64,000 nt of DNA. Origin: Alphaproteobacteria bacterium (lineage in GTDB: Bacteria; Pseudomonadota; Alphaproteobacteria; Rs-D84). The notes beneath the pieces were generated by a model. It searched no databases. It was given only the letters and a program-made list of their open reading frames with translations, and was not told the origin of the DNA. Location: positions 34,834-98,833 of the forward strand of contig WRHR01000002.1 of NCBI GenBank assembly GCA_009783145.1, in the 5' to 3' direction. How positions within the stretch are numbered: position 1 is the stretch's first letter; every line of letters begins with the position of its first letter. The translations under genes were made by a program, and so were the position numbers. Shown here piece after piece: positions 112 through 53,311 of this stretch.

Positions 112-235
112 AATTAGCAATTAGCAATTAGCAATTAGCAATTAGCAGTTTGACGCAACAATAAGCATTGTCCATTATAATGGACAATGTTTCTAAATTC
201 TCCGAACCATTAATTGCTAATTGATAATTGCTAAT
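112..235. repeat. Heptamer-array hairpin element, family A: (gcaatta)x4 - spacer with TGTCCATTATAATGGACA - (taattgc)x3
   Basis: Tandem 7-mers 112-143 and inverted copies 209-235 flank perfect 18-bp palindrome 169-186. Confidence 0.85.
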
Positions 236-1894: not shown

Positions 1895-2596
1895 TTACCT
1901 TGCTGGAGACAGCCTGATTTCCACGCGCCGGTTCATACGGCGACCCGTATCGTCCTGGGCCGCGATCGGGCGCGCGGCGCCACGCCCGGTTATGAACATC
2001 CGCGACGTGTTGACCTCGTGCTTTGCCAGGAAAATCGCCACCCTTTGGGCCATGTCTGTCGACAGCGCAACCGCCGCGTCCTTGTCCCGCATAGCGTCCG
2101 TATATCCCGCGATTTCCATAAACGTGGCATCGTATTTTTTCAGAACCTTCGCGATGGTCTTCAACATATCCGCCCCGTCTGCGGAGATTTCCGGAGCATC
2201 CGAATACATAAACGAATCGCGCACAAGCAGCAAGACTACATCTGTCCCGACGCGCTGCACTTGGATTCCAGGCTTCAGCAAGGAATCATAAAGCTCTTGT
2301 TCCAACGCCACCATGTATTTGAATACCGCCGGGTCTATATCCGTACGGGCCGATTCCGCACCATAATTGCTGATTACTGATTGCTCATTGCCAATTAACT
2401 TGCCCCCATTGCCCAAGTAAACCGGGCGCTTTGCAATTTTCATAGTATCCGTCATTTCTCCCATGGTCGCCCCGCGAAGAATCGCGGGCCACTGGTCATG
2501 CGGCGGAGTTTTATATGCGACGCAGCCGCATATAAGAGTAAGAGAGTAGAAGAGTAGAAGAGTAGAAAAGAATGATAATAACCGATGTTTTTTCAT
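1895..2596 (-). CDS. OmpA-family peptidoglycan-binding (lipo)protein
   Basis: C-terminal OmpA_C/MotB-like domain (...TDAMRDKDAAVALSTDMAQRVAIFLAKHEV...NRRVEIRL); signal peptide encoded by the repeat at 2525-2640. Confidence 0.7.
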   Translation of the reverse strand: MKKHRLLSFFSTLLLFYSLTLICGCVAYKTPPHDQWPAILRGATMGEMTDTMKIAKRPVYLGNGGKLIGNEQSVISNYGAESARTDIDPAVFKYMVALEQELYDSLLKPGIQVQRVGTDVVLLLVRDSFMYSDAPEISADGADMLKTIAKVLKKYDATFMEIAGYTDAMRDKDAAVALSTDMAQRVAIFLAKHEVNTSRMFITGRGAARPIAAQDDTGRRMNRRVEIRLSPAR

Positions 2597-2640
2597 ATCT
2601 GATTCTCTCCTACTCTCTTACTCTTTTACTCTCATTTAAC
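2525..2640. repeat. Heptamer/octamer-array hairpin element, family C: (agagtaga)x4 / inverted (tactctc)
   Basis: gagtaagagagtagaagagtagaagagtagaaaag ... ctctcctactctcttactcttttactctc; left arm codes LLSFFSTLLLFYSLTL of the 1895-2596 product. Confidence 0.8.
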
Positions 2641-3456
2641 CCAAACCGCCACTTCGTTTTTATCCGCTTTGCGGCAGTAAGTCGCGGCGGATTCAAAGTA
2701 CCCGTTAACGCTGACGCGATCCGCCCAATCCAGCTTTACCGTCGCCAGCCAGCCGCAAGTCTTGAAATCCAGCCCATTCAGCACCAGCGCGAATTCGCGC
2801 ACTCCCGGATGGGCGAATACCGAGAAATCCGCACCCGCCAGCGGGCTTTTTTCTGTTTTCATCACACCAGATTTTACAAGATAGTCGGTGGAGATTCCCC
2901 CAAAATCACGCCGCGCGGCATACAGCAGTTTCGTATTGCTGGCAATCGCTTTCAAGTCTTCGACCGCAACCATGCGAATCTGGCGAGTGCGCACGACATT
3001 ATACATTGATATCGCGCCCGCAGTCATAACACCTGCGATTGCAAGAACGCCCAGCATCTCTATTAGCGAACGACCTGATTGCGACAGGTTGGAGGTTGGA
3101 GGTTGGAGGTTGGAGGTTATTGATTTTGTAGAACTTGAAAGCATCTTTTTTATCTCCTCACAGTCATTGTTGATATTGTTAAACCATTCTTCTGTCAGGT
3201 AATCATTATCTTTTAGCAATTCCAGCCAATACAAAGTTTCGGAACATTCTTTTAATGCTATGTATTGCTTATTTGCAAAATCTTTTCTGCTGCTGGCATA
3301 AGCAGCTTCTGCCAAATTAGCACCGATACTTGTCCCCGATCGTAAAATTTGTTTAGAAAGAATATATTCTTTTTTTTCATCACACAAAAATTTATATAAC
3401 TTTACAACTCGACTGGCAAACTTTTTACTCTTTGTAAAAATCATACTTTCTTTCAT
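2632..3456 (-). CDS. Chimeric ORF: N-terminal four-helix-bundle protein of the 23S-rRNA-IVS protein family (TIGR02436-like) + (TSNLQPP)x3 repeat linker + type IV pilin-like C-terminal half (GRSLIEMLGVLAIAGVMTAGAISMY prepilin motif)
   Basis: Residues 1-110 match the four-helix-bundle pattern (SIGANLAEA...FIALKECSETLYWLELL); AT-rich block 3125-3456; class-III signal motif internal to ORF. Confidence 0.5.
   Translation of the reverse strand: MKESMIFTKSKKFASRVVKLYKFLCDEKKEYILSKQILRSGTSIGANLAEAAYASSRKDFANKQYIALKECSETLYWLELLKDNDYLTEEWFNNINNDCEEIKKMLSSSTKSITSNLQPPTSNLSQSGRSLIEMLGVLAIAGVMTAGAISMYNVVRTRQIRMVAVEDLKAIASNTKLLYAARRDFGGISTDYLVKSGVMKTEKSPLAGADFSVFAHPGVREFALVLNGLDFKTCGWLATVKLDWADRVSVNGYFESAATYCRKADKNEVAVWVK
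3087..3118. repeat. (ggttgga)x4 tandem heptamer repeat, in-frame inside CDS 2632-3456
   Basis: ggttggaggttggaggttggaggttggagg encodes TSNLQPPTSNLQPP. Confidence 0.8.
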
Positions 3457-3460
3457 TTTT

Positions 3461-3492
3461 ACCTCCTACTTCCTACCTCTTACCTCCTACTT
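3461..3492. repeat. Family D (ggaagta/ggaggta) single arm between chimeric-gene start and dnaX stop
   Basis: acctcctacttcctacctcttacctcctactt. Confidence 0.6.
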
Positions 3493-5037
3493 AACCGATA
3501 CAACCTCTGCCCCCGCAAATAGATTCAAAGCGTTTGCAACGGCCGGGTCGGATTCTATTTCCGCTTTTTTTATTTCGCCCGGAGTTTGAAGCGGCTCAGG
3601 CCTTGAAGCCTGCTCTATTTTTTCCAGAGTCCAAGTTTTGCCGGTTTTTTCCAACAAGAACTTATTCAGCTTTATCTGGAAATCGCGATCGTCCCGTCGG
3701 TCAAAGAATTTTATATGCCCATCCGAAAACTCGATAACTTCTATATTGTTGTTCCAATGAGTCATCAGCAGCAATTCTTTTGCATCGGAAAGCGCACAAG
3801 CCAAATCCGCAGGAGAATTTAAAGCCGGAGGCGCGGAATGCGAGGACGGCTCCGGCTGCGCGGCTTTTACGCTTTTCGTTTTGCTTTTTTCGCCTTCGCT
3901 GTGCTGCAACAAAACGGAAACCGGCGGTATGTCCGCGATATGCATCAAGCGCACGAGCAGCATATCGAAGCACTGCTTTTGATTTCCCGCTGCCTGCATT
4001 TCCGGCTGCGCGGCCACCATAACCTGCCATATCCTCGACAAGGTATTTATCCCCGCGGTCTCGACGATTTTTTTGATCTGCTCTTTTTGGTCCGCAGTGT
4101 ACGGCGAGCTTGAAGCGCCGCCGGCGCGCAAGGCCGGATGCATTCTTGTCGCCCAATGAGTCCATTCCATCATGTCAGTCAGCAGCATAGTCAAATCCGC
4201 GCCGTTCGCGTACAGCGCGTCGGCTTTGGCGATCGCCGCCGCCACATCCCCGGATAGCAGAGTCTGCATAAAATCGACAACCACACCGCGGTCCGCGCGT
4301 TTCAGCATTTCCAAGACCGCCGCTTCATCAACCTTGCCCCCCGTCTGCGCGATTGCCTGGTCCAACAGAGATACTCCGTCGCGAGCGCTGCCGTCCGCGG
4401 CGCGGGCAATCAGATCATTCGCGCCTTCGGTCAGCTCTATCTTTTCTTGGTCCGCCATCCAAGCAAAATGCTTCTTTAAAATATCGACCGGTATGCGCAC
4501 CAGATCAAACCGCTGGCAGCGCGATAAAATAGTCACCGGGACTTTGCGGATTTCAGTTGTCGCAAGTATGAAAATAACATGCGATGGCGGTTCTTCCAGA
4601 GTCTTCAACAAAGCATTAAACGCGCTGGTCGACAGCATATGGACTTCGTCGATGATATATACTTTATAGCGGCCGTTCGTAGGGCGATACCCGGCGGCGT
4701 CCAGAATATCGCGCATATTATCCACGCCGGTGTGCGACGCGGCATCGATTTCCAAGACATCGATATGCTGGCCGGCGGCGATCGCGCGGCAGTTTTCGCA
4801 AGTCCCGCAAGGCGTCGCGGTGGCCTTGTCCGCGCTTTGGCAGTTCAAGGCTTTCGCCAGAATGCGCGCGGTGCTGGTTTTCCCGGTGCCGCGTATTCCG
4901 GTGAAGATATATGCGTGAGCAATACGGTCGGTATTGATTGCGGTGGTAAGAGTCTTGACCAAGACTTCCTGGCCGATAAGCGATGCGAAATCCTGCGAAC
5001 GGTATTTCCGCGCAAGAACGGTGTAATTTGTATCCAT
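3487..5037 (-). CDS. dnaX: DNA polymerase III subunit tau/gamma
   Basis: N-terminal clamp-loader AAA+ motifs (GTGKTSTARILAKALNC, Cys4 zinc module CGTCENC, DEVHML). Confidence 0.9.
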   Translation of the reverse strand: MDTNYTVLARKYRSQDFASLIGQEVLVKTLTTAINTDRIAHAYIFTGIRGTGKTSTARILAKALNCQSADKATATPCGTCENCRAIAAGQHIDVLEIDAASHTGVDNMRDILDAAGYRPTNGRYKVYIIDEVHMLSTSAFNALLKTLEEPPSHVIFILATTEIRKVPVTILSRCQRFDLVRIPVDILKKHFAWMADQEKIELTEGANDLIARAADGSARDGVSLLDQAIAQTGGKVDEAAVLEMLKRADRGVVVDFMQTLLSGDVAAAIAKADALYANGADLTMLLTDMMEWTHWATRMHPALRAGGASSSPYTADQKEQIKKIVETAGINTLSRIWQVMVAAQPEMQAAGNQKQCFDMLLVRLMHIADIPPVSVLLQHSEGEKSKTKSVKAAQPEPSSHSAPPALNSPADLACALSDAKELLLMTHWNNNIEVIEFSDGHIKFFDRRDDRDFQIKLNKFLLEKTGKTWTLEKIEQASRPEPLQTPGEIKKAEIESDPAVANALNLFAGAEVVSVK

Positions 5038-5314: not shown

Positions 5315-5566
5315 ATGAAACTGTTCAAACGCATCTTGGGCGTATCTTTGGTTACTGTAGGAGTCCTAGCGGGCAAGTCGGCCCTAGGTGCATCTTGCAA
5401 CTCGGCTATAGGGAACGGGACAGAAATTAATGGCGATTGTCGTTACGAAAGTTGCGTTAATGCAACCGATATTTTATCCAATGGAAAATGTTATTGCAAG
5501 AAAAGCAATTGTGATCCATCTGCCCCCATCAGTTTGTTCAGGCTTCGGGCCGGTTCAAACTGCTAA
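5315..5566 (+). CDS. Small secreted Cys-rich peptide (signal peptide + 8 Cys), AT-rich
   Basis: 83-aa ORF; low-GC block 5300-6330. Confidence 0.3.
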   Translation: MKLFKRILGVSLVTVGVLAGKSALGASCNSAIGNGTEINGDCRYESCVNATDILSNGKCYCKKSNCDPSAPISLFRLRAGSNC

Positions 5567-6322
5567 TCCTGCCTTGCTGGCTTGCTTTATATATTTCTTG
5601 AGTCTTCTGACCAAACCTTTTCTTTTCGCCATTTTATAAGCGAAACCGCATGGTCCATTATCCATCCAAGTATTATTATATCTTTCTTCTTCCCTGTCTT
5701 TATTAAACTGTAGTAACAGCTTATCCGCGCAAGCCGGGGACATTTTTTCATCTATTATGTGCTCCGCACACTTTTTCATCTGTGCATAAATCCGTTCGGT
5801 TTGCATTTGCAAGTTTTTCAGCGTCTGCTTATCATATTTTTGGGGCTTTACAATCCATTCATCGCGAAGCACGGAATACGAGGCCGCGTTTTTTGCGATA
5901 TCCGGCACCTGACCGTCTTTACCAAAAGTTCCGTCATTATTTTTGATATAAAAATTATGAAAAATAGCAATTTCCAATTTCCGCCCGCAAATTTTCGGCT
6001 TGAAAAAGCGAATGAAATAGTCTTGCAGATACCAAACGAATTCGTTGGCGATTTCAGGGTTGCAGACTTTAAGTATTCCCGATATATCCACAAAGATATG
6101 GACGTCTATATCGCTGGACCAGGTGTAAAAATAATTCGCCGCGGAACCGATAAGAACTATGTCCATAACATCCTTGTCATGATCAAGCTTTACATGAAAC
6201 GATTCTTCAAAAAAACCCAAAAACTCCCAGGCCCACTTCAATATGCATTGCCTAGCGGGCTGTCGCAACTTTTGCGAAGGCAGCCAAATTGTTTTTAATA
6301 ATTGTCGCTTTTGGGCAAACAT
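5555..6322 (-). CDS. Nucleotidyltransferase-fold protein (Pol-beta superfamily; GS-x10-DID motif)
   Basis: IVLIGSAANYFYTWSSDIDVHIFVD = hG[GS]...DxD signature; start taken at MFAQKRQLL (6322), 7 bp after the upstream stop; AT-rich. Confidence 0.5.
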   Translation of the reverse strand: MFAQKRQLLKTIWLPSQKLRQPARQCILKWAWEFLGFFEESFHVKLDHDKDVMDIVLIGSAANYFYTWSSDIDVHIFVDISGILKVCNPEIANEFVWYLQDYFIRFFKPKICGRKLEIAIFHNFYIKNNDGTFGKDGQVPDIAKNAASYSVLRDEWIVKPQKYDKQTLKNLQMQTERIYAQMKKCAEHIIDEKMSPACADKLLLQFNKDREEERYNNTWMDNGPCGFAYKMAKRKGLVRRLKKYIKQASKAGLAV

Positions 6323-6329
6323 ATTCTGA

Positions 6330-9212
6330 TTACGGACATGACCCACCGGGTGTTTCCATTTCCAACTGAAAACATTTCGGCACACCATTCAGCTTGCCAG
6401 CCCGAGTTATATAGCTACATCTAAGTCCAGCCGCGACGCATCCTTGCGGACCTTCCAGGTATCCCGTGCAGCTTTCATCCATAAATACCCAAACATAGTC
6501 TTCTGAACTATACGTTGAATGGTGCTCGCCATCACCATCTGCATAAGTGAAGCCATATCCTATAAAACCACAGGCAGGATTTATTGCCGCCCCTATTGTA
6601 AAAAGCCCTGAATCGCATCCGAAGCCTTTTGCCGGACATTGCGAATTACGTTCAACACAAGCCGAATTCTGGCTGGAACCTTGTGGTACTCCGCATATAC
6701 TGCCCAGCCATGTCGTTTCGATTGAACAGCAATGGTTATTGTCTGAATTTGCAGAACAAGTGCAATTCTCAATAAGTTGGCCAATTTCGCATGGCGGATA
6801 AACGCAGGAATTGCCGTTCGACTCTTGCCCTGTCGGACAGCAATACTGATTAATACCGGAAGTGCTTACGTCGCCGGGGCAAGCGCAAGACCCATCCATA
6901 GGGAAGTTTGCCGTCGAGCACTTGGGCTTACAGCCGTCGTCCCATGCTTGCCCGGACGGACAGCAATGTCCATGACTGGCGTTGCTGCAAGAGCACTCGT
7001 CCGTAGCGGGTCCCGGGATCGGGCACGGAGGCTTGCCCGTAACGCAATTCATCCCGTTCCAAATCTGTCCGACACCGCAATCCGGCTGACAACGGTTGAG
7101 GTTAATGTTCCAAACTTCGCCCGGCTCGCAGACGCCGTACGGCAATTCGCAGCGTCCCGAGATTACCAGATACCCGGCTTCGCAGACGCAGCGCTCATTC
7201 ACATAGAATCTCTGCAGACCCGTGTTTGGATCCGTTTGATATATTTGCCCAGGCCTTGGAATCGGCGCACCGACCTGCAACGACACCCAAGATGAATAAT
7301 CCGGACACAGCATCGACTGATAGAAGATATCCGATATGCTTTCTATGCATGTGTTCGGCTCGTCTATCGGACAAGCAACTTGATCGTCCGAGAACACCGC
7401 ATAGCCGCAAGTCAGCGCAACGTTCCGACACGCTCCTTTCAGCACCGCGTACACATTGTTGATATTCGCGTTATTAGACCAAGAATTAATCTGCATAACC
7501 TGCTGCGAATAGCACGCCGAAATTTCCGCCATACAACTGGAAGCGTAATCCGATATGATCCTTTCCTGAGCGGCGCGGATGCTGACCATCGCCCGCTGGA
7601 TATAATTCACCAATATATTATTCTTGTTGTTATACTTGCCGCGGTCGTCGTAAGTAAATGCGCGGCACTTGTCCAAGACCGGGCGGCAAAGGCCGCTGTT
7701 CGCATTGTCCCCCATTCCTATCTTCGAAAGCAGATACCGCACGATGCACTTGCCGTTATTGTTTTGAGCGTCGCAGGCGGAATAGCCGGACATGCTCCAC
7801 GCGCTGTTGATAAAGTTCGCATCTATCAGCGAATTATCATAATTAACCATCATCTTTCTTATCATAGAAATATTCTGGCCCAGTATGACTTCGCCATTTT
7901 CGTCTATGAATCTTTTTGTCGGATCCAAGCATTTCGCCATGTCGGCGCCGCAAACCATGTCGTCCTTCATGCATTGCTCCAAGGCCCCGACGCAGCCCTT
8001 GGCGTCGTACGCATTGTGGTCCTGCAGCACGGCCAGACGCGCCTTTTGCAGCATCTGCGTTGCGCTGCGCACGTTGGATTTAAGGGTATCGTTCATCTTT
8101 TCCAATCCCTTTTCGTACGCGATGCAGTCCTTGTCTATCTCCACGTCATAGCGGCCCGTAACCTGCCCGGTGTTCGCGCCCTTGGCCTTGCATGCGTTTA
8201 TCACGGGCGCGCAGCGCTTTTGCGCCATTTTGAACAAGTCCGTCCCGCGAAGGTTCGCAAACGAGGTATTGTTGTTCAGGCTGAACATTTCCGTAAAGTC
8301 CGTATCCAAATCGAAGTCCAAATCCAAATCCAGTCCGAAGTTGTTGTTGCCTTCCGCCACAAAAGATTCTGGGGTGCGTATCAGCTTTTCGATATCCGAC
8401 AGCATTCTGCGCGATTGGGTTGTGTCGCGGGCGTTCTGCAGTTCCAGCTCCGCTTCGGTGGCGGACATAATCGCGCGGATTTCCGGAGCCGTCAGCCCGA
8501 CATAGCGGATGCGCTGCGCCACGTCGTTCAACTGGCTGTTCGCTTCCTTTACGGCGCTTTCCACTCGCGCGTAAGACGACAAGCGCCCCGAACAGGCGCA
8601 TCGCTTTTGATTCGCGTCGATTACCGCGCAGAACTGATCCATGCAATCCGTGTACTGCACCATGCACGAATCGGTCGCAGCGCTGGTTTCTTCCCAGTTA
8701 AGCGCAGGCGCAGCAGGCGCAGAGGTCGCCGCGCGCGCCGTCAGATTACGGTTTTCGGCGCTTATATTCGAACCGGTTTGAAGGTCCGTGCCGACAATTT
8801 TCGCCCGTCCTCCGACTTCCGCCGTAGTCGGGCGCAAGGTAACCCCCGCGCGCCGCATAGGCGCGGACGCGTTCAGGCTTGCGGCATCGGTGCGCGCGGC
8901 GCGCCCTACTTGACGCGCGGCTTCGGTTATCGGGCTGGCGCGTCCGGATGCGGCCGGGGCCGCGTTCGCAACTTGACGAGATACGACTGCGCCGCGAGGA
9001 GACGGTGTCGCAGCTTGGACGCCAACTGCCGCCGGCTGATTCGCCGTTACGCGCGATACAACAGCGCCTTGGGTTTCAGTCTGATTTTGCGCGGACGAAG
9101 CGGCTGTAACGCCAACCTGCTGGCCTGGAATCGCGCGCGACGGGGCAACGTCAGCGGCCAGCGCCATGCCAGCGCAAAGAGCAAAGAACAAAGAGCAAAG
9201 AGCAAGTCTTTT
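6330..9212 (-). CDS. Large secreted Cys-rich protein B (signal peptide, A/T/G/R-rich disordered region, conserved Cys core, C-terminal Cys-dense repeats)
   Basis: about 960 aa from MKRLALCSLFFALCAGMALA; paralogous to 9215-11356 (YTDCMDQFCAV...RCACSGRL vs YYTCMDEICTA...RCACAGRV). Confidence 0.6.
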   Translation of the reverse strand, partial: KRLALCSLFFALCAGMALAADVAPSRAIPGQQVGVTAASSAQNQTETQGAVVSRVTANQPAAVGVQAATPSPRGAVVSRQVANAAPAASGRASPITEAARQVGRAARTDAASLNASAPMRRAGVTLRPTTAEVGGRAKIVGTDLQTGSNISAENRNLTARAATSAPAAPALNWEETSAATDSCMVQYTDCMDQFCAVIDANQKRCACSGRLSSYARVESAVKEANSQLNDVAQRIRYVGLTAPEIRAIMSATEAELELQNARDTTQSRRMLSDIEKLIRTPESFVAEGNNNFGLDLDLDFDLDTDFTEMFSLNNNTSFANLRGTDLFKMAQKRCAPVINACKAKGANTGQVTGRYDVEIDKDCIAYEKGLEKMNDTLKSNVRSATQMLQKARLAVLQDHNAYDAKGCVGALEQCMKDDMVCGADMAKCLDPTKRFIDENGEVILGQNISMIRKMMVNYDNSLIDANFINSAWSMSGYSACDAQNNNGKCIVRYLLSKIGMGDNANSGLCRPVLDKCRAFTYDDRGKYNNKNNILVNYIQRAMVSIRAAQERIISDYASSCMAEISACYSQQVMQINSWSNNANINNVYAVLKGACRNVALTCGYAVFSDDQVACPIDEPNTCIESISDIFYQSMLCPDYSSWVSLQVGAPIPRPGQIYQTDPNTGLQRFYVNERCVCEAGYLVISGRCELPYGVCEPGEVWNINLNRCQPDCGVGQIWNGMNCVTGKPPCPIPGPATDECSCSNASHGHCCPSGQAWDDGCKPKCSTANFPMDGSCACPGDVSTSGINQYCCPTGQESNGNSCVYPPCEIGQLIENCTCSANSDNNHCCSIETTWLGSICGVPQGSSQNSACVERNSQCPAKGFGCDSGLFTIGAAINPACGFIGYGFTYADGDGEHHSTYSSEDYVWVFMDESCTGYLEGPQGCVAAGLRCSYITRAGKLNGVPKCFQLEMETPGGSCP

Positions 9213-9214
9213 CA

Positions 9215-11356
9215 TTACCATTCGTGCGGCACGCATTGCCCGCCTTGGGTTTTGTACCCGTTGAAGCATCTGCATCCGATTTTCACGCATCCGTTCGTAC
9301 CGCCCGAGGTGGAAGTAATGCCATCGGAAGAAATGCCTTCGCAGACCGCGCTATAATCCGAATACGGAGGACACATCACGACGCCGGGGCCCCAGCCCGT
9401 GCCGAAGTCGCGGATAGAGCCTTCGCCATGCACGCCCGGCGTTTCCCGCAGGCAGCTTTCGCGCAACGATGCCGAGCTTTGTCCGCCAACCGCCGTTATG
9501 ACGTTCAGGATTTCCGTCAGCCGGACCACATTGCGGCAGTTATTGATGCTCCAATCCTGCGAGTTATTGCAACTGCCGGTGCTGTCCGGAACATCGATAA
9601 TTCTGCCCGCGCCTTGGCCGCATACCATGGTGTCATAGCAGCTTGGGACCTCCGAGCTCTGCGAGCAATAATTCCTTACGCGCGCCACGGTCCAATTCGG
9701 GTTAGACCGGTTCTGCTGGTCAAAGCAGTCATATATTTCATTGACGCAGTTCTTATAGTTCTCCTTGGCAGTCGCCAATTCGTTCGCCGTGTTCGTCGTT
9801 TCTTCCTGCGCGAACTCCAGACGCTTTTGCTGCAAGTATTGCGTCGCGGCGATCTTCTGATACGCCATGTTCGTCGCTTGCTTTTTCAGCTCTTCCCCAT
9901 ACAGGTCGCAATCCGCGTTCGCGTCCAGCGCATACTTTTGCAGGATGGAACGGCGCGCGTCCGCAACCGGGCGGCGCAAGTTCGCGTACGGGTCGCCGCT
10001 GGACGTCGTATAGCCATAGCACGCCGCGCTGGTGTTGCCGGTATAAGAATTTCCGGGGTTAACGAAGTTCAAATCGGACCCGTCGTTGCTGACGGTGATA
10101 GTGCTGTTAAGATTATACGGCCCGGTGGTGCCGCCGTACGATCCGCACGCTTCATAGATTCCGTTAAAGCAGGAATCCAGAACTCGGTTGCAGACGTTGT
10201 TGTGCCCGTACTGGAACAGCTGGTATCCCCAAAGCCTCGCCAGAAAGTCCGCCGACGTCTCGGTATTGAACAGGTTTATATCCGCCATCTGGCCCACTAT
10301 ATCGCTGACGTTCATGAACGAGTTGAACAAGTTGCCATCGTTGCTGCCCGTGATAACATTGATTTGGTTTATGGTGCTGGCATAGGTCTGCAGGTTCGCC
10401 AAGATATCGGAATCCGCGCCGTTCAGAACGCTCATAAACTCATTGAAGCTGTTCAGCCCCAGCGCGCCGTTGGTGCAGTACGAAGGCGGAGTCGTCGCAT
10501 TGCATGTCTCGCTGTATCCGGCGGTCTGTCCCATCATATGGTTGTTGCACCAGTCGGTCATGTTCTGCCCTGTGGTTTTCGCATCGCGCCAGGATACGCA
10601 GTTCAGGGTCTTTTCCGCATCGGTAAGTTGGAACGCCTCGTTCATGCTCTTGCCCCTGGTCATAATCAGCATAGACAGCTGGCCCGAAACTTTCAGCAAG
10701 TCTTCTTTCGCCTGCTGCAGTTGAGCCTCGACATTGGAAAAGGTCTTTACGCGTCCGGCGCAGGCGCAGCGGCGCTGGCCCGGATTGCGCGCGGTGCAGA
10801 TTTCGTCCATGCAGGTGTAATAAGATTCCAAACAGTTGGCGTAAGCGTCCGCGGAAATCAAGCCCGTGGTCGGATCTATTATGTTGGAATAAGTTCCCGT
10901 ATACAGCCTGTTCTGCAACAAGGTGTTCGAAGCGCTGACTCCGGCGCTGGCGCGGATCGGCACATCTCTCAGCGATATGCGCGCCTGGCTCGCGCCCGCC
11001 GGCATTGTTGCGGTACGCGCGGTGACACTGCGCGCCGGACTGCCGGGACGCGTCACTACATTTCTGGGGGTCGCGGCTGAAGCGGCATTCCCGCGCTGCG
11101 CCACGCCGCGCGAGGTCTGGCCGGTTGCTGCCGTGCCTCGGCTGGTCCCGGTTGTCGCGCCGGCTTTCGCCGCCGCCGATGTCGTTTGGGCACGTCCGGT
11201 GCGATTGTTCGCGGCGCCCGAGCGCCCGGACTGCGCGGCCGCAGTGGTCTGCGCAGGCACTGTCTGGTCGTACCCGGCAATCGGATCACCCAACGCTGGC
11301 AACGCAAAAGCGGCGCAAAGCGCAAACGCAAAGTATACAAAAAACCGGCTTTTCAT
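9215..11356 (-). CDS. Large secreted Cys-rich protein A (paralog of B)
   Basis: 713 aa, signal peptide MKSRFFVYFAFALCAAFALPALG; 4-bp overlap with downstream paralog suggests an operon. Confidence 0.6.
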   Translation of the reverse strand: MKSRFFVYFAFALCAAFALPALGDPIAGYDQTVPAQTTAAAQSGRSGAANNRTGRAQTTSAAAKAGATTGTSRGTAATGQTSRGVAQRGNAASAATPRNVVTRPGSPARSVTARTATMPAGASQARISLRDVPIRASAGVSASNTLLQNRLYTGTYSNIIDPTTGLISADAYANCLESYYTCMDEICTARNPGQRRCACAGRVKTFSNVEAQLQQAKEDLLKVSGQLSMLIMTRGKSMNEAFQLTDAEKTLNCVSWRDAKTTGQNMTDWCNNHMMGQTAGYSETCNATTPPSYCTNGALGLNSFNEFMSVLNGADSDILANLQTYASTINQINVITGSNDGNLFNSFMNVSDIVGQMADINLFNTETSADFLARLWGYQLFQYGHNNVCNRVLDSCFNGIYEACGSYGGTTGPYNLNSTITVSNDGSDLNFVNPGNSYTGNTSAACYGYTTSSGDPYANLRRPVADARRSILQKYALDANADCDLYGEELKKQATNMAYQKIAATQYLQQKRLEFAQEETTNTANELATAKENYKNCVNEIYDCFDQQNRSNPNWTVARVRNYCSQSSEVPSCYDTMVCGQGAGRIIDVPDSTGSCNNSQDWSINNCRNVVRLTEILNVITAVGGQSSASLRESCLRETPGVHGEGSIRDFGTGWGPGVVMCPPYSDYSAVCEGISSDGITSTSGGTNGCVKIGCRCFNGYKTQGGQCVPHEW

Positions 11357-11421
11357 AAAAAACCCCTTCCCTATATTCGTTTTATTATATCATAAAAACT
11401 AACTGAGTGAAAGCGTTATCA

Positions 11422-11508
11422 ATGACTAATGACCAATGACTAATGTTTAATGACCAATATAAGCGCCCATTAGTCATTCGTCATTTATCATTGGTCATTA
11501 GTCATTAA
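11422..11508. repeat. Heptamer-array hairpin element, family B (second copy)
   Basis: caatgactaatgaccaatgactaatg ... cattagtcattcgtcatttatcattggtcattagtcatt. Confidence 0.8.
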
Positions 11509-13286: not shown

Positions 13287-13889
13287 TTATGCACTCATAA
13301 TACTATCCACCAATTTATGGATTCCAGCAAGCTTAGACGCCTCATACTCCTTGCCATCCGCATTGCTAAGCCCCCAGCTCCTGGCCGTATCTTGTGCCAA
13401 TTCATACCTTTTCATCATGTCCTCGAAGTTAAACTTTGCTCCATCACTATGGTCATACCCAGGCATTATTTCTTCTAGCTTCTTTTGGCACTGATGTCTT
13501 GTCGTTGGGATATCAGAAGGCGGAACATAATGTGATAACGCCCATGCTTCTATACACGGCGTATTCAATGCTATTTGTACTTTTGGCCTATTGGCAACCG
13601 AATTGCTTTCCTTTGCCTTTTGATATGCCAGTCTTACTCTTTCCGCTTTATCATCGTGATCAAACACGCACCAATATTCTACGCTTTTCTCTATTCGCTT
13701 ATCTTTGACAAAAGATACCATTCCCTCAACAATCTTCAATGGATCCGTATGCTTGTGGGGTTGAATTTGAAGCATACATCTTGGATTTAATTTACTAATC
13801 GCATCCAAATACCTTGGTTCGGAATTCACTCCCTCACAAATCACATATACTGTTTTGGTAATCAAAGGTCTACTTGGCGGGCATCTCAT
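13287..13889 (-). CDS. RloB-like protein (AbiLii-like component)
   Basis: N-terminal VYVICEGVNSEPRYL matches the RloB (vICEGxtEpnYf) signature; 20-bp overlap with the upstream ATPase gene. Confidence 0.6.
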   Translation of the reverse strand: MRCPPSRPLITKTVYVICEGVNSEPRYLDAISKLNPRCMLQIQPHKHTDPLKIVEGMVSFVKDKRIEKSVEYWCVFDHDDKAERVRLAYQKAKESNSVANRPKVQIALNTPCIEAWALSHYVPPSDIPTTRHQCQKKLEEIMPGYDHSDGAKFNFEDMMKRYELAQDTARSWGLSNADGKEYEASKLAGIHKLVDSIMSA

Positions 13890-15192
13890 CCGTATTCTCC
13901 GCAGATTTTACACCATCCAAAAAGAGATGCGCCCCTAAAAAGGGAATTGCACCATATACGCCATTCAGATACCCTCTTTCCACATCTTTGTCTTTGCGGG
14001 GGGCAAAATCTGCCAACGAATATAATTTCGAGGAATGGTCAAAATCTTTTTTTACAAACCAAATTTCATCATCACGCCATATATCCTGAATATCCATTAG
14101 CAGCGTGTTATGCAAAGATACCAATATTTGTGAACCATTTTTATTATCTGCCAATAATTGCTGCAATAAGCGCTTTACAATGAACGGATGCAGAGAGCTA
14201 TCAAACTCATCAATTATCAATAAAGCGCCTTTTTGATAATTTTTAAAGTTATATAACGCCAAAGCAAGATGTATTAGCCTATTCGTCCCGGTAGATAGTT
14301 CTGACAACTCAAAATACTCGTTCTCGACTTTGATTTTCAACTTCTCTCCTTTCGCCTTTCCAGATGCAACATCAAATGTAAAAACATAGTAGTCTTCACC
14401 ATCCATATATGATAGAGCATCGCCGAATTTTACAGGTGTCGTATATTTGGACGGCTTACTCTTTAACAATTCATTTGTTAAATCATCTGAAATTTTTACA
14501 AATTCCGCGCACTGAATACCAACATCGGATTCTTGCAATAACCTATTTAAAAATTCGGGAAAACTACTCTGTGTGTTATAAACATTATAGAATGACGACA
14601 TCTTGACCTTGGTCTTATCGTTGAAAAGCAATATGGCCCCAAAAAATTCATATAAATTTTCTATATGATCTCTATACGACCAATCAATGCTATTGAGGCC
14701 GTCAGTATCTAATTTGCGAATATAAGACATTCGATCCGCAACGGTTTTATTTTCTCTCGACCAATTTCCACCACATTCGACCTTGCCTTTTGAGCGACGA
14801 AATATCAATTCAGTTTGCGAGTCGTCTTTTATCAGTTCAAATTTCTCACTAACAAATTCCGCAGGTCTGATCTTCATTTCATACAAATACTTTTTGTTGC
14901 TCCATATAAAGCTGATTTTAAAAACCGATTCGTTATTTTCGGAAAATCTGAATTGGCTTGCCTTTACATTCAACGAAGAAATATCATCCATTTCTATCAA
15001 CAAACTTAACCAGCTCAATGAATTCATAAAATTTGATTTTCCGCTCGCATTTGCACCATAAATTACTGCTCCTGATAAGTATTCATCTGAGACAATATGG
15101 TCCAAGTGTTGTCTGCTGCCGGTTTTTTCAAAACTAATCTCTTGTTCGGAATCAAACGAGCCAAAATTTGACACGGAATATTTCACAAGCAT
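13870..15192 (-). CDS. AAA_21-type ATPase (AbiLi-like / RloA-like component)
   Basis: Walker A GANASGKSNFMNSL, Walker B LLIIDEFDSSLHP typical of AAA_21. Confidence 0.7.
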   Translation of the reverse strand: MLVKYSVSNFGSFDSEQEISFEKTGSRQHLDHIVSDEYLSGAVIYGANASGKSNFMNSLSWLSLLIEMDDISSLNVKASQFRFSENNESVFKISFIWSNKKYLYEMKIRPAEFVSEKFELIKDDSQTELIFRRSKGKVECGGNWSRENKTVADRMSYIRKLDTDGLNSIDWSYRDHIENLYEFFGAILLFNDKTKVKMSSFYNVYNTQSSFPEFLNRLLQESDVGIQCAEFVKISDDLTNELLKSKPSKYTTPVKFGDALSYMDGEDYYVFTFDVASGKAKGEKLKIKVENEYFELSELSTGTNRLIHLALALYNFKNYQKGALLIIDEFDSSLHPFIVKRLLQQLLADNKNGSQILVSLHNTLLMDIQDIWRDDEIWFVKKDFDHSSKLYSLADFAPRKDKDVERGYLNGVYGAIPFLGAHLFLDGVKSAENTDEMPAK

Positions 15193-15995: not shown

Positions 15996-16155
15996 CCAAT
16001 TTCTGCGCTTGTCCGCCGTAGCTTTAGCGAAGGCGGAAACATCGTAATTCAAAATATCAAAGAATCCATTCTTTCAACATACTCTTCAAGCATTCTGTTT
16101 GATTTCACGGCGCGCGAGGCGTCATGAAATCAAACAAAGATAAAAAGTCGATCAT

Positions 16156-19027
<2,872 letters not shown>

Positions 19028-19062
19028 TTTATCCAATGCTTGAAGAGTAGGTCGTAACGCGA

Positions 19063-19170
19063 GACGCGAGACACGAAACGCGAAAAAACCAACTGCTTCA
19101 AATTTGGTAAAATAACTTGAATGAGCTATAATCGCACGCGTCACGCATCTCGCGTTTCGCGTCTCGATTT
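19063..19170. repeat. Heptamer-array hairpin in the tRNA-23S spacer: (cgcgaga)x2(cacgaaa)(cgcgaaa) / inverted (tctcgcg)(tttcgcg)(tctcg)
   Basis: cgcgagacgcgagacacgaaacgcgaaaa ... cgtcacgcatctcgcgtttcgcgtctcg. Confidence 0.7.
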
Positions 19171-19603
19171 TCAGCAGTTGTAAGTTGATTCTTGTTCTTT
19201 GAATTGAATTTCATCGCGACGCAACCCGGGCCCTGAAAAAATCATAGATTTTTTTGGGTGGGAATTCGCGACGATACTTCTATTTTCAGAAAGATATTTT
19301 GAGATTATTACGATGTCTATTTAGTAGCTAGAAGCTACTAAACAAACACAAAAACCGATTCACAATATAAAGCAGATTCACATATGCGAACATATGGAAT
19401 CATTGGTAAATTCCGGGTTCGCACCGAGATGCGAACACGGGCTTGTCCGAAGACAAACAATTTACCAATGATTCCAACCTCATCAAAAAATAATACCAAA
19501 CTTGAACAGTCCCCCTTCGCGCTTTGCGCTTCGGGCGACACTCCTTCGCCTTCGCTGCTCGGCTTGGGTGGCTTGCCACCCGAAGCCTCGCAGAGGCGAA
19601 GGG

Positions 19604-19889: not shown

Positions 19890-21585
<1,696 letters not shown>

Positions 21586-21939
21586 TTAGAAAACTTGTTT
21601 GTTTGTCCGTGCACTAAACTAAACTGACATTGAATGTTAGTTCGTTTTACTATTTCGCAAGACAAGTATTTTAACGAGGCCACAAAATTTTGTAACCTAC
21701 TACCTGTCTAGGATATGCACTATGACAATTGTCAAAGTTTGGATTTTCCCAAATTCAACTGTCTGCACATCCCTTCTTTTTATGATTTGTATTTTGCAAC
21801 GCAAAACACCCATCATAAATCTTGATGAGCTGCTTTATTCACAATGTTGCGATTTTTCCTGGGACAACGAATCGTGTTGTTTCCATAAAACCGCAGAATT
21901 TCAGGGGTTGAAGCTTTTGTTCCAACTTGAAAGCCCGCA

Positions 21940-23430: not shown

Positions 23431-23520
23431 TGTCGTTCTAGTATACTAGAACGGCAAGTATAAAATAAAATGTCCATTATAACGGACAACGTTCATTATC
23501 GCGTACGACTTATGATTAGG
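23431..23520. repeat. Composite palindromic element: TTCTAGTATACTAGAA + TGTCCATTATAACGGACA + cgacttatgatta (copy 1)
   Basis: Homologous to 52131-52225. Confidence 0.7.
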
Positions 23521-25613: not shown

Positions 25614-25738
25614 ATTAGCGATTAGCAATTATCAATTAGCGATTAAAAATGCAACAATATGAAATGTCCAATATACTGGACAATGTTATTACCAGTTCCC
25701 CAATTGCTAATCGCTAATTGCTAATCGCTAATTCCTTT
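25614..25738. repeat. Heptamer-array hairpin element, family A (second copy) with central TGTCCAATATACTGGACA
   Basis: ttagcgattagcaattatcaattagcgatt ... ttgctaatcgctaattgctaatcgctaatt; shared gcaacaata flank. Confidence 0.85.
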
Positions 25739-30384: not shown

Positions 30385-30403
30385 TAAAAAACCTTCGGTT
30401 TTT

Positions 30404-30525
30404 AAGTAGGAAGTAGGAGGTAGGAAGTAGGAAATAAAAAGCAACAATAAACGATGTCCATTATAATGGACAACGATTACCTTACTCTATCACTTCCTAC
30501 TTCCTACCTCCTACTTCCTACTTCT
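30404..30525. repeat. Heptamer-array hairpin element, family D: (ggaagta)xn - TGTCCATTATAATGGACA - (tacttcc)xn
   Basis: taagtaggaagtaggaggtaggaagtaggaaat...cttcctacttcctacctcctacttcctacttc; palindrome at 30455-30472. Confidence 0.85.
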
Positions 30526-33004: not shown

Positions 33005-33838
33005 TTATAGCACATTAGCGCGCGCTAGTTCAACAAACTTTTCCATAGGCAATTCTTCCGCGCGCTCTTGCCCGGTTAATCCGAATTGCGACCAATCGAC
33101 GCCGGGCATAATGCTGCGTATCATTTTCCTCCGCTGGCCGAAAAGCTTCGCGGTCAGCTTTTCAACGGATGACAGCTGAATTGTTTTTTTATCTTTCGGG
33201 ATTATCTGCACAACCGCGCTTTGGACTTTCGGCGCGGGGAAAAAAGCGGTATTCGGAATATTGAATAAAATCTTCGCGTCCGCAACCAAAGCGGTAAGAA
33301 CGCTCAGCCGGCCGTATTGCTTATCGCCGACGCGCGCGACGATTCTATCCGCCACTTCGCGCTGGAACATTAAGGTCATAGAGTGGAGAGTGGAGAGTGA
33401 AGAGTGTAGTTGGTGCAGCCACTGAATTAAAAGTTCAGTTCCGATATTATACGGAAGGTTGGAACAAATTGCTAAATCATCTGCACTCTTCACTCTCCAC
33501 TCTTCACTCTTGAAATATTTCAATGCGTCGCCATAAATAACTTCCAGGCGGCCGTCTGCGGCGTTCGAAATTTTTTTCAAAATCAGCCCGGTCGCACGGT
33601 CTTTTTCAATCGCGATAACTCGCGCGGCGCCGCACTCCAGCAAAGCGCGCGTCAGGCCGCCCGGCCCTGGGCCGACTTCGACAACCGTAGCGCCCTGTAT
33701 GCCCGGCACGCTGCGCGCTATTTTCCGCGTGAGGTTCAGATCGAACAGGAAATTCTGGCCCAGCTGCTTTTTGGGTTCCAGGCCCGCATCGCGCATCATT
33801 TCTGCAACTGGGGGAAGATTTAATAATTTTTCATTCAT
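33005..33838 (-). CDS. rsmA: 16S rRNA (A1518/A1519) dimethyltransferase
   Basis: SAM motifs VVEVGPGPGGLT, NLPYNI; contains a 28-bp inverted repeat pair in-frame. Confidence 0.85.
   Translation of the reverse strand: MNEKLLNLPPVAEMMRDAGLEPKKQLGQNFLFDLNLTRKIARSVPGIQGATVVEVGPGPGGLTRALLECGAARVIAIEKDRATGLILKKISNAADGRLEVIYGDALKYFKSEEWRVKSADDLAICSNLPYNIGTELLIQWLHQLHSSLSTLHSMTLMFQREVADRIVARVGDKQYGRLSVLTALVADAKILFNIPNTAFFPAPKVQSAVVQIIPKDKKTIQLSSVEKLTAKLFGQRRKMIRSIMPGVDWSQFGLTGQERAEELPMEKFVELARANVL
33379..33512. repeat. Inverted heptamer arrays (gagtgaa/gagtgga ... cactctt/cactctc) inside the rsmA coding sequence
   Basis: atagagtggagagtggagagtgaagagtgtag and ctgcactcttcactctccactcttcactcttg, 71 bp apart, bracketing the NLPYNI codons. 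Confidence 0.85.
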
Positions 33839-36976: not shown

Positions 36977-37082
36977 AGCATGAAAGAGTACAAAATTTTC
37001 ATATAAAAGGTCAATTAATAAAAGTACCGCGCAACCTAGATTACGCGGCCCTAATTTATTCTTTATTCTCTATTCTTTATTC
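36937..37082. repeat. Heptamer-array hairpin element, family E: (aagaata)x3 - spacer - (tattctt)x3; left arm codes the dacA signal peptide, right arm abuts the pyk stop
   Basis: gaaagaataaagaataaagaataaagaat ... ttattctttattctctattctttattcttta. Confidence 0.8.
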
Positions 37083-37083
37083 T

Positions 37084-49466: not shown

Positions 49467-49590
49467 AGGTAGGAGGTAGGAAGTTGGAGGTAGGAGGTAA
49501 GAGAGTAAAAGTTTTTTCTTTTAATTTATAGAATAAATTCTTAATCACCAACTTCCTACCTCCTACTTCCTACTTTCTACTTTTGTCCCT
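49467..49590. repeat. Heptamer-array hairpin element, family D with central ttggtgattaagaatttat core (inverted relative to the 53330-53462 copy)
   Basis: taggtaggaggtaggaagttggaggtaggaggtaagagagtaaaag ... accaacttcctacctcctacttcctactttctac. Confidence 0.8.
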
Positions 49591-52231: not shown

Positions 52232-53311
52232 TTACGATTGCTTCAGGATTTCTTCAGCGATGTTAGCAACGGCATTGTTTTCAATCTTCGCCTTTGCCGC
52301 CATCTTTTTCAGGCGCGCCCCATTGCTAAACAATTCCTCCAGCGTTGCGGATAGCCACCTTGAAGTAAATTTGCTCTGCGGGATTGCAATGCCGCCGCCT
52401 TGCGAAGCAAAAACTTCCGCATTCGCCGCCTGGTCGGGGTTTATCCCCAACGGGACCAGAATCGCCGGACGGCCAACGGTCTGCAATTCCGCGACCGTGC
52501 TTGCGCCGCTGCGCCCTATCACCAAGTCCGCCGCCGCCACTTCCGATGCCATATCATGAATGAACGACAGCACGTTCGCCTTCACGCTGTTGCCGGCATA
52601 GAACCTTTGCAAGCGCGCGACGTTTTCCGGCCGGGTCTGATGCACTATGAACAGCTTCTTTACGATGGATGACGGAAGAAGGATGATGGACGACGGAACC
52701 ACGTCGTCCAAAATCTGCGCCCCTAACGAACCACCGGTGACAAGAAGACGGATGATGGATGATGGATGATGGATGATGGATGACATAAATTCTTTACGAA
52801 CAGGTAATCCTGTATAAACAACTTTCAACTTTCCATCATCCGTCATCCGTCTTCCATCATCCATTCCCTCCACCTTTGGAAAACTTGTCATCAAAGTATT
52901 TACCCAGCGCAGGGCGAATTTATTCGCGCGACCAATTGCCGCGTTCTGCTCGTGCAATAATGTCGGGATTTTCCAAACGCGCGCCGCCAAAATTGCAGGA
53001 ACGGACGCATAGCCGCCGAATGCCACAACTCTGTCCGGTCGGAAAACCATAAAGCGCAGCGTCAGAGCAACCGCCGAAAAGCCGATCTTCATCAATGCGA
53101 AGACTTGCTGCAACTTTCCCTTGGCGCCGACGCCGGACGCCCAAACCCAAGCGATTCCCGCGCGCGGAGGCTTATTCTTTTTCACCATATCCATAACGCG
53201 CGAATCGGTCGAGATTATCACGCGATTATGGCGCCGCACCAATTCTTCGGCAACGACCAGCGCTGGAAAAACATGCCCGCCGGTTCCCCCGGTCGCAATC
53301 CATATCTTCAT
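52232..53311 (-). CDS. murG: UDP-GlcNAc:undecaprenyl-PP-MurNAc-pentapeptide GlcNAc transferase
   Basis: GGTGGHVFPAL N-terminus, C-domain LLVTGGSLGA; linker holds an inverted (ggatgat) array element. Confidence 0.85.
   Translation of the reverse strand: MKIWIATGGTGGHVFPALVVAEELVRRHNRVIISTDSRVMDMVKKNKPPRAGIAWVWASGVGAKGKLQQVFALMKIGFSAVALTLRFMVFRPDRVVAFGGYASVPAILAARVWKIPTLLHEQNAAIGRANKFALRWVNTLMTSFPKVEGMDDGRRMTDDGKLKVVYTGLPVRKEFMSSIIHHPSSIIRLLVTGGSLGAQILDDVVPSSIILLPSSIVKKLFIVHQTRPENVARLQRFYAGNSVKANVLSFIHDMASEVAAADLVIGRSGASTVAELQTVGRPAILVPLGINPDQAANAEVFASQGGGIAIPQSKFTSRWLSATLEELFSNGARLKKMAAKAKIENNAVANIAEEILKQS
52748..52867. repeat. Inverted heptamer arrays (ggatgat)x5 ... (atcatcc)x4 inside the murG inter-domain linker, in-frame
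   Basis: gacggatgatggatgatggatgatggatgatggatgacat ... ccatcatccgtcatccgtcttccatcatccattcc; codes MSSIIHHPSSII and GMDDGRRMTDDG around the conserved GLPVR block. Confidence 0.85.

Follow-up and report, generated by a model that had tools for sequence, protein, structure and literature searches.

A heptamer-armed hairpin element carrying a 23S-IVS-type four-helix-bundle gene, fused in frame to a type IVb-like pilin gene in a gut alphaproteobacterium

The fused gene between dnaX and ompA

The stretch of DNA analysed here (contig WRHR01000002.1, positions 34,834 to 98,833; from here on the window, 64 kb in full, numbered from its first letter) stems from a gut alphaproteobacterium and contains, between dnaX and a conserved pilin gene, a gene for a four-helix-bundle (4HB) protein of the 23S rRNA intervening sequence (IVS) type. 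The 4HB gene is flanked by two inverted heptamer arrays and continues without a stop codon into the pilin gene. A first-pass annotation made from the letters alone had recognized the resulting open reading frame (ORF) of 274 amino acids as chimeric, and it recurs with the same sequence on four contigs. The features of the locus are:

3487..5037, minus strand: dnaX (DNA polymerase III gamma/tau), the upstream gene, with DNA_pol3_delta2, DNAX_ATPase_lid, DNA_pol3_gamma3 and DUF3646 (Pfam, from the identical gene in L001)
3457..3492, minus strand: 5' stem arm, purine-rich heptamers, on the mRNA strand AAGTAGGAGGTAAGAGGTAGGAAGTAGGAGGTAAAA (TRF 3460-3490, period 7)
2632..3456, minus strand: fused ORF, 274 amino acids, ATG start
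3118..3456, minus strand: coding part of the 4HB (S23p / 23S-IVS) protein, codons 1-113, without a stop of its own (profiles, low G+C, homologues)
3142..3159, minus strand: candidate internal start, GAGGAG (3159..3154), a 9-nt spacer and the ATG of M105 (3144..3142)
3084..3120, minus strand: 3' stem arm, (ACCTCCA)x4.7 (TRF 3086-3118, period 7, 100% matches; homologous arm-coded tails in P0057 and P0066)
3058..3075, minus strand: class III signal-peptide core G128-R-S-L-I-E133, with G, R, S and E invariant in the homologue alignments and in 80 genome loci
2632..3072, minus strand: mature pilin, 146 amino acids and stop TGA, with a long N-terminal helix, a beta-sheet and the conserved C234 and C261

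The N-terminal part belongs to the families PF05635 (23S_rRNA_IVP; residues 3-107, E 4.7e-31, 107.6 bits against a cut-off of 33.8, profile positions 2-105 of 106) and TIGR02436 (residues 7-113, E 3.4e-33, 114.1 bits against a cut-off of 24, profile positions 2-108 of 109), with both matches above the curated cut-offs across the full domain, as the first-pass annotation had expected. It has about 8000 database relatives at E < 1e-10, is 65-77% identical to the best stand-alone proteins (110-146 amino acids, Clostridia among the sources) and shares 34 invariant columns in an alignment of 24 close-subfamily sequences that includes it. All 120 homologues listed are 110-146 amino acids long, a stand-alone rule that the window ORF, with 274 amino acids and no stop before the pilin, breaks. 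The difference in base composition between the two parts, likewise noticed at first pass, is a G+C content of 0.30-0.37 over 3150-3450 versus 0.50-0.61 over 2632-3070, the window mean being 49.8%; the 4HB gene is thus AT-rich and foreign in composition. Its first four codons, MKES, were considered as a leftover of the pilin leader MKEQS and rejected, relatives such as P0055 starting with MKENIVFVKSK at equal length, which makes MKES native to the 4HB gene. Also rejected was membership in the Avd family of accessory proteins of diversity-generating retroelements, which have the Pfam superfamily fold in common with the window protein: the Avd profile NF033474 gave 13.5 bits against a cut-off of 80, and a reverse transcriptase was not found among the 30 window ORFs scanned. 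The 64-kb window contains no second 4HB gene and no pilin paralogue.

The C-terminal part is a pilin, type IVb-like. Prepilin peptidase is predicted to cut between G128 (3075..3073) and R129 (3072..3070), and the sequence G128-R-S-L-I-E133-MLGVLAIAGVMTAGAI has the glycine at -1, the glutamate at +5 and the stretch of about 20 hydrophobic residues. The profile search proposed at first pass gave only weak matches (PF07963 N_methyl, 16.9 bits versus a cut-off of 21.2, E 0.0047; TIGR02532, 14.1 versus 16.3 bits); the part is nevertheless identified as a pilin because its homologues have an invariant G-R-S-x-x-E and because its fold matches that of known pilins. A query with the C-terminal 153 amino acids retrieved 48 homologues, nearly all stand-alone proteins of 152 amino acids that start with M-x-x-[EQ]-S-G-R-S-L-I-E, and a genome scan found 204 relatives in metagenome-assembled genomes (MAGs) of gut and termite-gut Alphaproteobacteria ('Ca. 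Enterousia', 'Rickettsiales'). G, R, S and E(+5) are invariant in the 34 homologues aligned and in the 80 genome loci, as are C234 and C261 in the alignment. An AlphaFold2 model (pLDDT 87.9) shows an N-terminal helix of 55 residues (3-57) followed by a four-stranded sheet, and the top 15 PDB matches found with Foldseek are all type IVb pilins (TcpA, E 1e-5, TM up to 0.76; then CofA and PilS).

With TcpA of Vibrio cholerae, CofA of enterotoxigenic Escherichia coli and PilS of Salmonella Typhi the window pilin shares G(-1)/E(+5), the helix plus sheet, the two cysteines and a +1 residue that is likewise not Phe (Foldseek E 1e-5 to 1e-3). It differs from them in having only 13-20% sequence identity, in belonging to a family with a usual leader of 6-7 amino acids, in having an entire foreign protein before G128, and in lying without adjacent assembly genes between dnaX and ompA/skp/lpxD. 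This gene order (dnaX - pilin - ompA-family lipoprotein - skp(OmpH) - ... - lpxD - fabZ) is kept across the loci, the pilin gene being syntenic in more than 200 genomes of the clade.

The 1100 nt around the fused ORF are 100% identical on four independent metagenome contigs, two from ENA and two from JGI, all from different samples. Since the identical sequence was thus obtained from four metagenome samples and two assembly sources, the fused junction is real. The fusion protein (P0169) has records from JGI, ENA and GEM and none from NCBI, where the RsmA of the same genome does have one, and therefore the NCBI annotation may possibly not call the 274-amino-acid ORF as a single CDS. P0169 was not among the matches of the homology searches with the pilin part and the 4HB part, and its cluster at 90% identity has a single member.

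What the junction looked like before the insertion can be read from the closest relatives (73-79% identity), in which dnaX ends with AAA TAA, followed by GGAGATAAAA and by ATG AGA GAG CAA AGC GGA. With the slash marking the predicted cut, the ancestral consensus is dnaX-TAA-GGAGATAAAA-ATG-(R/K)-E-Q-S-G/RSLIE; the 10-nt spacer of L008 is identical to that of the closest relatives. A leader of 6-7 amino acids (MxxxSG/RSLIE) is found in 78 of the 80 genome loci, and none of the 80 has a 4HB gene within 3 kb of the pilin. The closest homologous loci thus preserve the ancestral state without the interruption, and the earlier proposal that a foreign gene and a repeat had landed in the leader of a pilin gene is supported. 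The dnaX C-terminus, LFAGAEVVSVK*, is kept across the loci. In the window, the distance from the dnaX stop to the G128 codon has grown to 411 nt, and the native Shine-Dalgarno (SD) sequence, ATG and first three codons of the pilin gene are lost. A different insertion is present at the dnaX/pilin junction of a termite MAG (Lab288P3bin104; L007 3376-4026, the same as L018), where an AT-rich ORF of 216 amino acids without a Pfam match stands beside a pilin that retains its own start (MMRKKNQESG).

A hairpin element with heptamer arms

The first-pass annotation had described a perfect period-7 tract, which was found, and a peptide coded by it, TSNLQPPTSNLQPP, which was slightly wrong. On the coding strand the tract reads (ACCTCCA)x4 followed by ACCTG, which codes for TSNLQPPTSNL, then SQSG, then RSLIEMLGVLAIAGVMTAGAISMY; it has no stops in any of the three frames and sits at the place of the ancestral pilin start codon. 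What had been missed is that the array is one arm of a hairpin, that reading through such an arm is normal, that M105 offers a third route to the pilin besides fusion and inactivation, and that the genome is full of such hairpins.

The other arm lies directly upstream of the 4HB gene, holds its SD sequence and also the dnaX stop codon (TAG, 3487-3489, in the first unit). Its units (GGTAGGA) are complementary to those of the 3' arm (TCCAACC) but for one A·A mismatch per heptad. Because of this mismatch an inverted-repeat search with a seed of 7 missed the 3084/3457 pair, and the pairing rests on folding and duplex energy. The minimum free energy fold of 3070-3500 (-105.5 kcal/mol, z -4.45, none of 100 shuffles as good) pairs 3457-3492 with 3084-3120 and leaves a loop of about 350 nt that encloses the whole 4HB ORF; the duplex of the arms alone has -37.4 kcal/mol (z -5.3, none of 500 shuffles as good). 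The heptamer array is therefore the 3' stem arm of an IVS-type hairpin, and gene and repeat form a single element, 3084-3492. One finding weighs against so simple a description: the 5' arm is a member of the resident AAGTAGG family, and its pairing with the 3' arms of three further hairpins of the window (-42 to -54 kcal/mol) is better than that with its own partner, so that the element may have arisen by recombination with a resident hairpin.

Like an IVS, the element has terminal inverted repeats that form a long stem round an ORF; its site is not that of an IVS, which lies in rRNA (23S helix 25/45, or 16S), since it stands between dnaX and the pilin gene. Such an S23p-ORF-bearing 23S IVS is also present in Leptospira. 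In the helix-45 23S IVS of Coxiella burnetii an S23p ORF lies in the loop of a stem formed by 28-bp terminal repeats, two or three tandem heptamers precede the ATG, and RNase III cuts the element out (Warrier et al., 2016; PMC4990558). Knowledge of IVSs and their S23p ORFs goes back to the early 1990s, their function and spread still being unclear (Warrier et al., 2016). The window element shares with rRNA IVSs the PF05635/TIGR02436 protein in a stem-loop, the heptamers right before the ATG and the AG-rich SD sequence in the stem; it differs from them in that it is located at an mRNA gene junction, both its arms are heptamer arrays, its SD sequence is strong, and its ORF has no stop and continues into the host gene.

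Elements of the same kind were found in other bacteria. The 4HB copies that were fetched lie in tight operon gaps (miaB/mutS, mutL/miaB, plsC/rodZ, methylase/restriction enzyme, cdsA/rseP). The first five elements examined all lie between inverted arrays that measure 27-43 nt, consist of units of about 7 nt and are 74-94% complementary, with the G-rich arm upstream and with units that vary by locus, and inverted-array flanks were also seen in most of about 30 further distinct 4HB copies. Between mutL and miaB a second 4HB hairpin element (coordinates 555-926) is present in L010 and L011 and absent from L009, the contigs being otherwise identical and from different samples. The operon-junction elements at miaB/mutS (L009), plsC/rodZ (L013), methylase/restriction enzyme (L014) and cdsA/rseP (L136-L137) share with the window element the subfamily, the arm-gene-arm layout, arms placed directly against the stop codon of one neighbour and the start codon of the other, and a reading frame that continues across the 3' arm.

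The stop codon of the 4HB gene is found within the 3' arm or just past it in many copies, and relatives have C-terminal tails that are translations of the arm (P0057, ...TSNLKPQTSNLVDNQL; P0066, ...SSTLNPQTSTLKRK; P0089, ...NSTLNSPHSTL). The nearest example, L136, has the order cdsA-TAA-(GGTTTGA)x4-GGA-ATG...4HB...(ACCTCAA)x4-ACCTTGTGGACAATCAACTATGA, its 3' arm differing from the (ACCTCCA)x4 of the window by one base per unit, and its 4HB stop codon overlaps the ATG of the next gene (ATGA). L136 gives this next gene no name; its counterpart in L137, a homologous locus, encodes a Peptidase_M50 (rseP-type) and follows after a gap of 4 nt. Read-through of the 3' arm is normal in this 4HB subfamily. 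Because the 4HB ORFs run through the 3' arm and stop on or near the next start codon, the layout would let ribosomes leave the upstream gene, traverse the 4HB ORF together with the 3' arm and reach the start codon downstream. On these comparisons the window element looks to be one copy of a mobile, widespread IVS-type hairpin element that occupies tight operon junctions in distant phyla, away from rRNA. It is the only copy seen to run on into a host gene, the frames of the stand-alone copies closing ahead of the arm, within it or just past it.

Neither the protein families nor the IVS architecture nor the pilins are new. A literature search turned up no account of 4HB elements that have heptamer arms and lie in mRNA junctions across phyla, nor of a ribosome-transparent 4HB layout or of a host gene relying on such an element for its start. 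The fusion is a singular case; more interest attaches to the class of elements and to the recruitment of their arms as coding sequence.

How the pilin could be made

We lean towards the view that the pilin is still produced through the element, probably from the 4HB ATG or from M105, and is then freed by prepilin peptidase. The hairpin element would have inserted into the 10-nt spacer between dnaX and the pilin gene, its 3' arm replacing the first three pilin codons, Met included, and joining codon 4 in frame and without a stop. Ribosomes that end dnaX at the stop codon in the 5' arm, or that bind at the strong SD sequence, would start at the 4HB ATG and read through the 3' arm into the pilin, with some initiation occurring at M105 instead. 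The hydrophobic pilin helix would then enter the membrane with the N-terminal part remaining in the cytoplasm, and a cut after G128 would yield the normal mature pilin; the cleavable leader would render the pilin gene tolerant of the fusion.

The SD/anti-SD energy at the 4HB ATG, -11.6 kcal/mol, is the strongest among 24 gene starts in the window (median -5.8). The pilin is in frame only with 1, 4 or 7 array copies, as a simulation of copy number showed, and each of the four contigs carries 4. No stop or frameshift interrupts the 146 mature codons, which retain all family-invariant residues; the identities to two outgroups, 0.64 and 0.44, lie inside the range of nine sister sequences, indicating no rate acceleration, and at columns that are at least 90% conserved there is one conservative change (Y to F), the sisters having 0-2. 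Extended leaders coded by hairpin arms appear to have arisen independently in two other lineages of this pilin family. In L037 (termite MAG, pilin 41% identical) a heptamer hairpin without an ORF lies at the dnaX/pilin junction with SD sequence and ATG in the loop, and its translated 3' arm gives a leader of 22 amino acids, MKKILSYLTSHASRLTPYAESG/RSLIEM; L005 has an arm-coded leader of 20 amino acids, MKTLTTSPQSPVPTSVSEAG/RSLIEM.

Several points weigh against production through the element. Long leaders are natural among type IVb pilins, where they measure about 13-30 amino acids; that of the window would have 128, and we know of no precedent for a folded leader of this length. No prepilin peptidase or pilus-assembly genes, of which pilD and pilB/C had been named as worth looking for, were found among the 30 window ORFs scanned. 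Cleavage of the stem by RNase III, of the kind known from rRNA IVSs, would part both candidate ATGs from the pilin and leave the 4HB message without a stop codon. An in-frame junction has a probability of about 1/3 by chance. Finally, too little time may have passed since the insertion for decay to be visible (four identical contigs, a single-member cluster, 4HB G+C not ameliorated), which makes the intact pilin ORF weak evidence of function.

A short leader with its own Met and ribosome-binding site is absent from the window pilin, the nearest in-frame ATGs being M105 and M1. The first-pass statement that the pilin motif has no upstream Met thus holds between the array and G128 and fails beyond it, as M105 is in frame 24 codons before the cut site, with GAGGAG 9 nt ahead. 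An in-frame start with an SD sequence just upstream of the motif, named at the time as the finding that would overturn the fusion, is matched weakly by M105, which is part of the 4HB gene, precedes the array and is a nearly invariant 4HB residue. Two other ways of expressing the pilin were looked into and dropped. Between the array and G128 the only candidate non-AUG start is CTG124, which lacks an SD sequence (+2.9 kcal/mol) and is preceded by anti-SD-like CCUCC repeats; promoter-like sites in the AT-rich insert number 5 against 4.0 expected, none of them well placed to drive the pilin.

M105 could also be the sole start that matters, the pilin being translated separately from it as an ordinary prepilin with a 24-amino-acid leader, MLSSSTKSITSNLQPPTSNLSQSG, and the fusion from M1 being a minor or irrelevant by-product. 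Its SD energy of -8.6 kcal/mol beats three quarters of the real gene starts of the window, and its leader length is inside the type IVb range, the fold also matching type IVb pilins. The arm-coded leaders of L037 and L005 start from an ATG 18-24 nt before the arm, and the hairpin before the ompA-family gene of the window likewise has an ATG 24 nt before its 3' arm. M105 was not created for the pilin, however, because it is nearly invariant in the 4HB family, where the Cys-Glu-Glu codons that form GAGGAG are conserved too, which makes the site fortuitous. It would be occupied by in-frame ribosomes arriving from M1, the SD sequence of M1 is the stronger one, and with no terminator in the upstream frame the fusion is necessarily made too. 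We consider translation from M105 only to be unlikely; this estimate and that for the phase switch below refer to separate readings, which do not exclude each other.

Equally unlikely in our estimate is that the insertion inactivated the pilin gene and that the frame runs on only by neutral accident, the event being recent, with no functional pilin being made. The loss of the native SD sequence, ATG and first three codons, a leader without precedent, the roughly one-in-three prior for an in-frame junction, and stem cleavage by RNase III that would orphan the pilin coding region all argue for it. So does the 4HB gene, whose G+C of about 0.33 versus 0.50 for the genome suggests a recent arrival and renders the lack of decay uninformative, and so does the lack of the fusion protein among NCBI-sourced entries, the MAG itself being in NCBI. 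On the other side stand the conservation of the pilin gene in synteny across the clade, the 146 intact codons with every family-invariant residue, the 25 linker codons open in frame, the in-frame copy number in four of four samples, and the parallel extended leaders of the two other lineages.

Quite improbable is a phase-variation switch in which four heptamer copies give the fusion (pilin ON) and three or five copies a stand-alone 4HB protein (pilin OFF). The unit length, 7 nt, is not divisible by 3, and the array shows 100% matches; 3 or 6 copies would give a stand-alone 4HB protein of 128 or 135 amino acids, which is a normal size, and 2 or 5 copies one of 147 or 154. The heptamer copy number of the IVS also differs between Coxiella strains (PMC4990558). 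However, the four contigs, which are consensus assemblies, and the single-member cluster show no copy-number variant, perfect arrays of 4-5 copies are common genome-wide, also in non-coding hairpins, so that perfection is not specific to this site, and four copies are a short tract for efficient slippage. A pattern scan for copy-number variants gave 0 hits in a collection of metagenome contigs from which even the known contigs are missing, so that it carries no weight here.

An artefact of assembly or sequencing across the repeat is virtually out of the question: short tandem repeats may collapse during assembly, but the tract of 33 nt is shorter than the read length and the same 1100 nt came out of four assemblies and two pipelines.

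The fusion would be a natural test of the leader length acceptable to prepilin peptidase and would illustrate how a cleavable leader buffers a gene against insertion. A broader reading, which we put forward tentatively and regard as possible though doubtful, is that the 4HB hairpins are translationally transparent, operon-resident selfish cassettes, one of which has become the obligatory start of a host gene and yields a natural polyprotein of 274 amino acids, from which prepilin peptidase would cut a leader of 128 amino acids and so free a cytoplasmic 4HB protein and a normal pilin, and that hairpin arms are routinely recruited as coding sequence. Purine-rich arms would code for charged n-regions and pyrimidine-rich arms for hydrophobic signal-peptide cores, the same arms also occurring in pilin leaders and in RsmA and MurG surface loops. 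Such use of repeat arms across the genome would be a separate and apparently undescribed source of protein novelty. The presence/absence polymorphism and the ribosome-passable layout of the element offer handles on mRNA processing by RNase III, on translational coupling and on the choice of insertion sites.

Array hairpins elsewhere in the window and neighbouring genes

TRF lists 75 tandem-array rows in the 64 kb, mostly of period 7. About 16 inverted array pairs with units of 7 nt, some of 8 nt, have duplex energies of -19 to -60 kcal/mol (z -5 to -10) and loops of 3-83 nt, and most lie exactly between a stop codon and the next SD sequence and ATG. The paired arrays fall into about 10 unit families, AATTAGC, TAATGAC, AAGTAGG, AAAGAAT, ATTTACG, GGATGAT and AGAGTGG among them. 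Solo arrays occur as well, for instance at 31021, 47941, 57752 and 59259. Examples of the pairs are:

2535..2633, minus strand: octamer-array hairpin at the pilin/ompA junction (TRF 2534-2567 and 2605-2633; 79-84% complementary; duplex -40 kcal/mol)
109-236, 1035-1117, 11420-11508, 25614-25733 and 30403-30526, strand not given: array pairs (TRF and duplex energy)
36932-37089, 49467-49584, 53334-53463, 55684-55743 and 60583-60656, strand not given: further array pairs (TRF and duplex energy)

The 5' arm of the octamer hairpin begins on the pilin stop codon, its loop contains the SD sequence and ATG of the OmpA-family lipoprotein gene, and its 3' arm (2535-2572) codes for the signal-peptide core FFSTLLLFYSLTL. 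In the relatives L008, L022, L023 and L060 the pilin/ompA junction is a plain ATGA overlap, which is the ancestral form, and four other lineages have different arrays at this junction. Hydrophobic signal-peptide cores are coded by pyrimidine-rich arrays at 2535-2572, 9171-9206, 957-1003 and 61859-61891, among them LCSLFFALC in a Cys-rich protein of 986 amino acids and ICALLFALC in a protein of 259 amino acids. In L005 (4521-4640) a single signal peptide, MKHEKCDMKQEKCDM-W-HISCLISHFSCFLSLVSCLLLAAC, is translated from the two arms of a hairpin.

Arms are also found in frame within two conserved genes. In rsmA/ksgA (33005..33838, minus strand) both arms of an AGAGTGG-family pair (33378-33513) are translated, giving SEEWRVKSAD and LHSSLSTLHS, which fill two variable loops flanking the catalytic NLPYN segment. 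P0184 has the same pair, and the RsmA proteins P0208, P0210 and P0177 have DEGRRM.. and SSIILHPSS, from the GGATGAT family, at the same two loops. The sequence between the arms is native, so the pair did not arrive in a single insertion. In murG (52232..53311, minus strand) the arms of a GGATGAT-family pair (52744-52864) flank the conserved TGxPVR segment; one of them, MDDGRRMTDDGK, is an insertion of about 10 amino acids relative to MurG of Pseudomonas aeruginosa, and the other, MSSIIHHPSSIIR, replaces a linker of equal length.

The rRNA operon carries array hairpins too, and none of those in its 16S, 23S and spacer contains a 4HB ORF. The 16S rRNA gene (19890..21586, minus strand) measures 1697 nt versus the 1533 nt of the model and has near its 5' end a hairpin insert of about 140 nt (21354-21491) built from the GAGTAAGA octamer family, as is the hairpin before ompA. 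The 23S rRNA gene (16139..19031, minus strand) has an ATAAGTT-array hairpin at 18392-18472, about 560 nt from the 5' end in the helix-25 IVS region, and in the 16S-23S spacer an ACGCGAG pair (19056-19172) lies just before the 5' end of the 23S gene.

Rickettsia palindromic elements are in-frame, translated palindromic insertions in genes. [quoted passage not shown] Both have a fixed sequence and 100-170 bp, as far as these parts go, whereas the arms in the window are tandem heptamers of many families that flank native sequence or a cargo gene. Intergenic heptamer arrays of about 4 units, often in inverted pairs, are given for Xanthomonas (GGGAATC), Nostoc (GGGGAYT) and Calothrix (STRR) in the sections drawn on from Rehm et al. 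(2015; PMC4692102), which count 70-75 inverted pairs per Xanthomonas genome. In the same sections these arrays are discussed as G-quadruplex formers and no link to a 4HB gene is drawn; in contrast to them, the arrays of the window have varied units, translated arms and, in the element described above, a 4HB gene between the arms.

A conserved palindrome, TTGTCCATTATAATGGACA, occurs four times in the window (168-187, 23471-23489, 25664-25683 and 30454-30473) versus 0 expected, and three of the four copies lie in the loops of heptamer hairpins with different arm families.

Large ORFs for secreted or Cys-rich proteins without a Pfam match lie at 6330-9290 (986 amino acids), 9215-11356 (713 amino acids) and 5555-6388 (277 amino acids), all on the minus strand. 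A VirD4-type coupling protein is encoded at 25714-27984 and ComEC at 40847-42766. The 5S end of the rRNA operon is adjoined by a pair of genes at 13287-15192 (minus strand) for an RloB-like protein and an AAA_21/AbiEii-type ATPase, which resemble an OLD/abortive-infection module.

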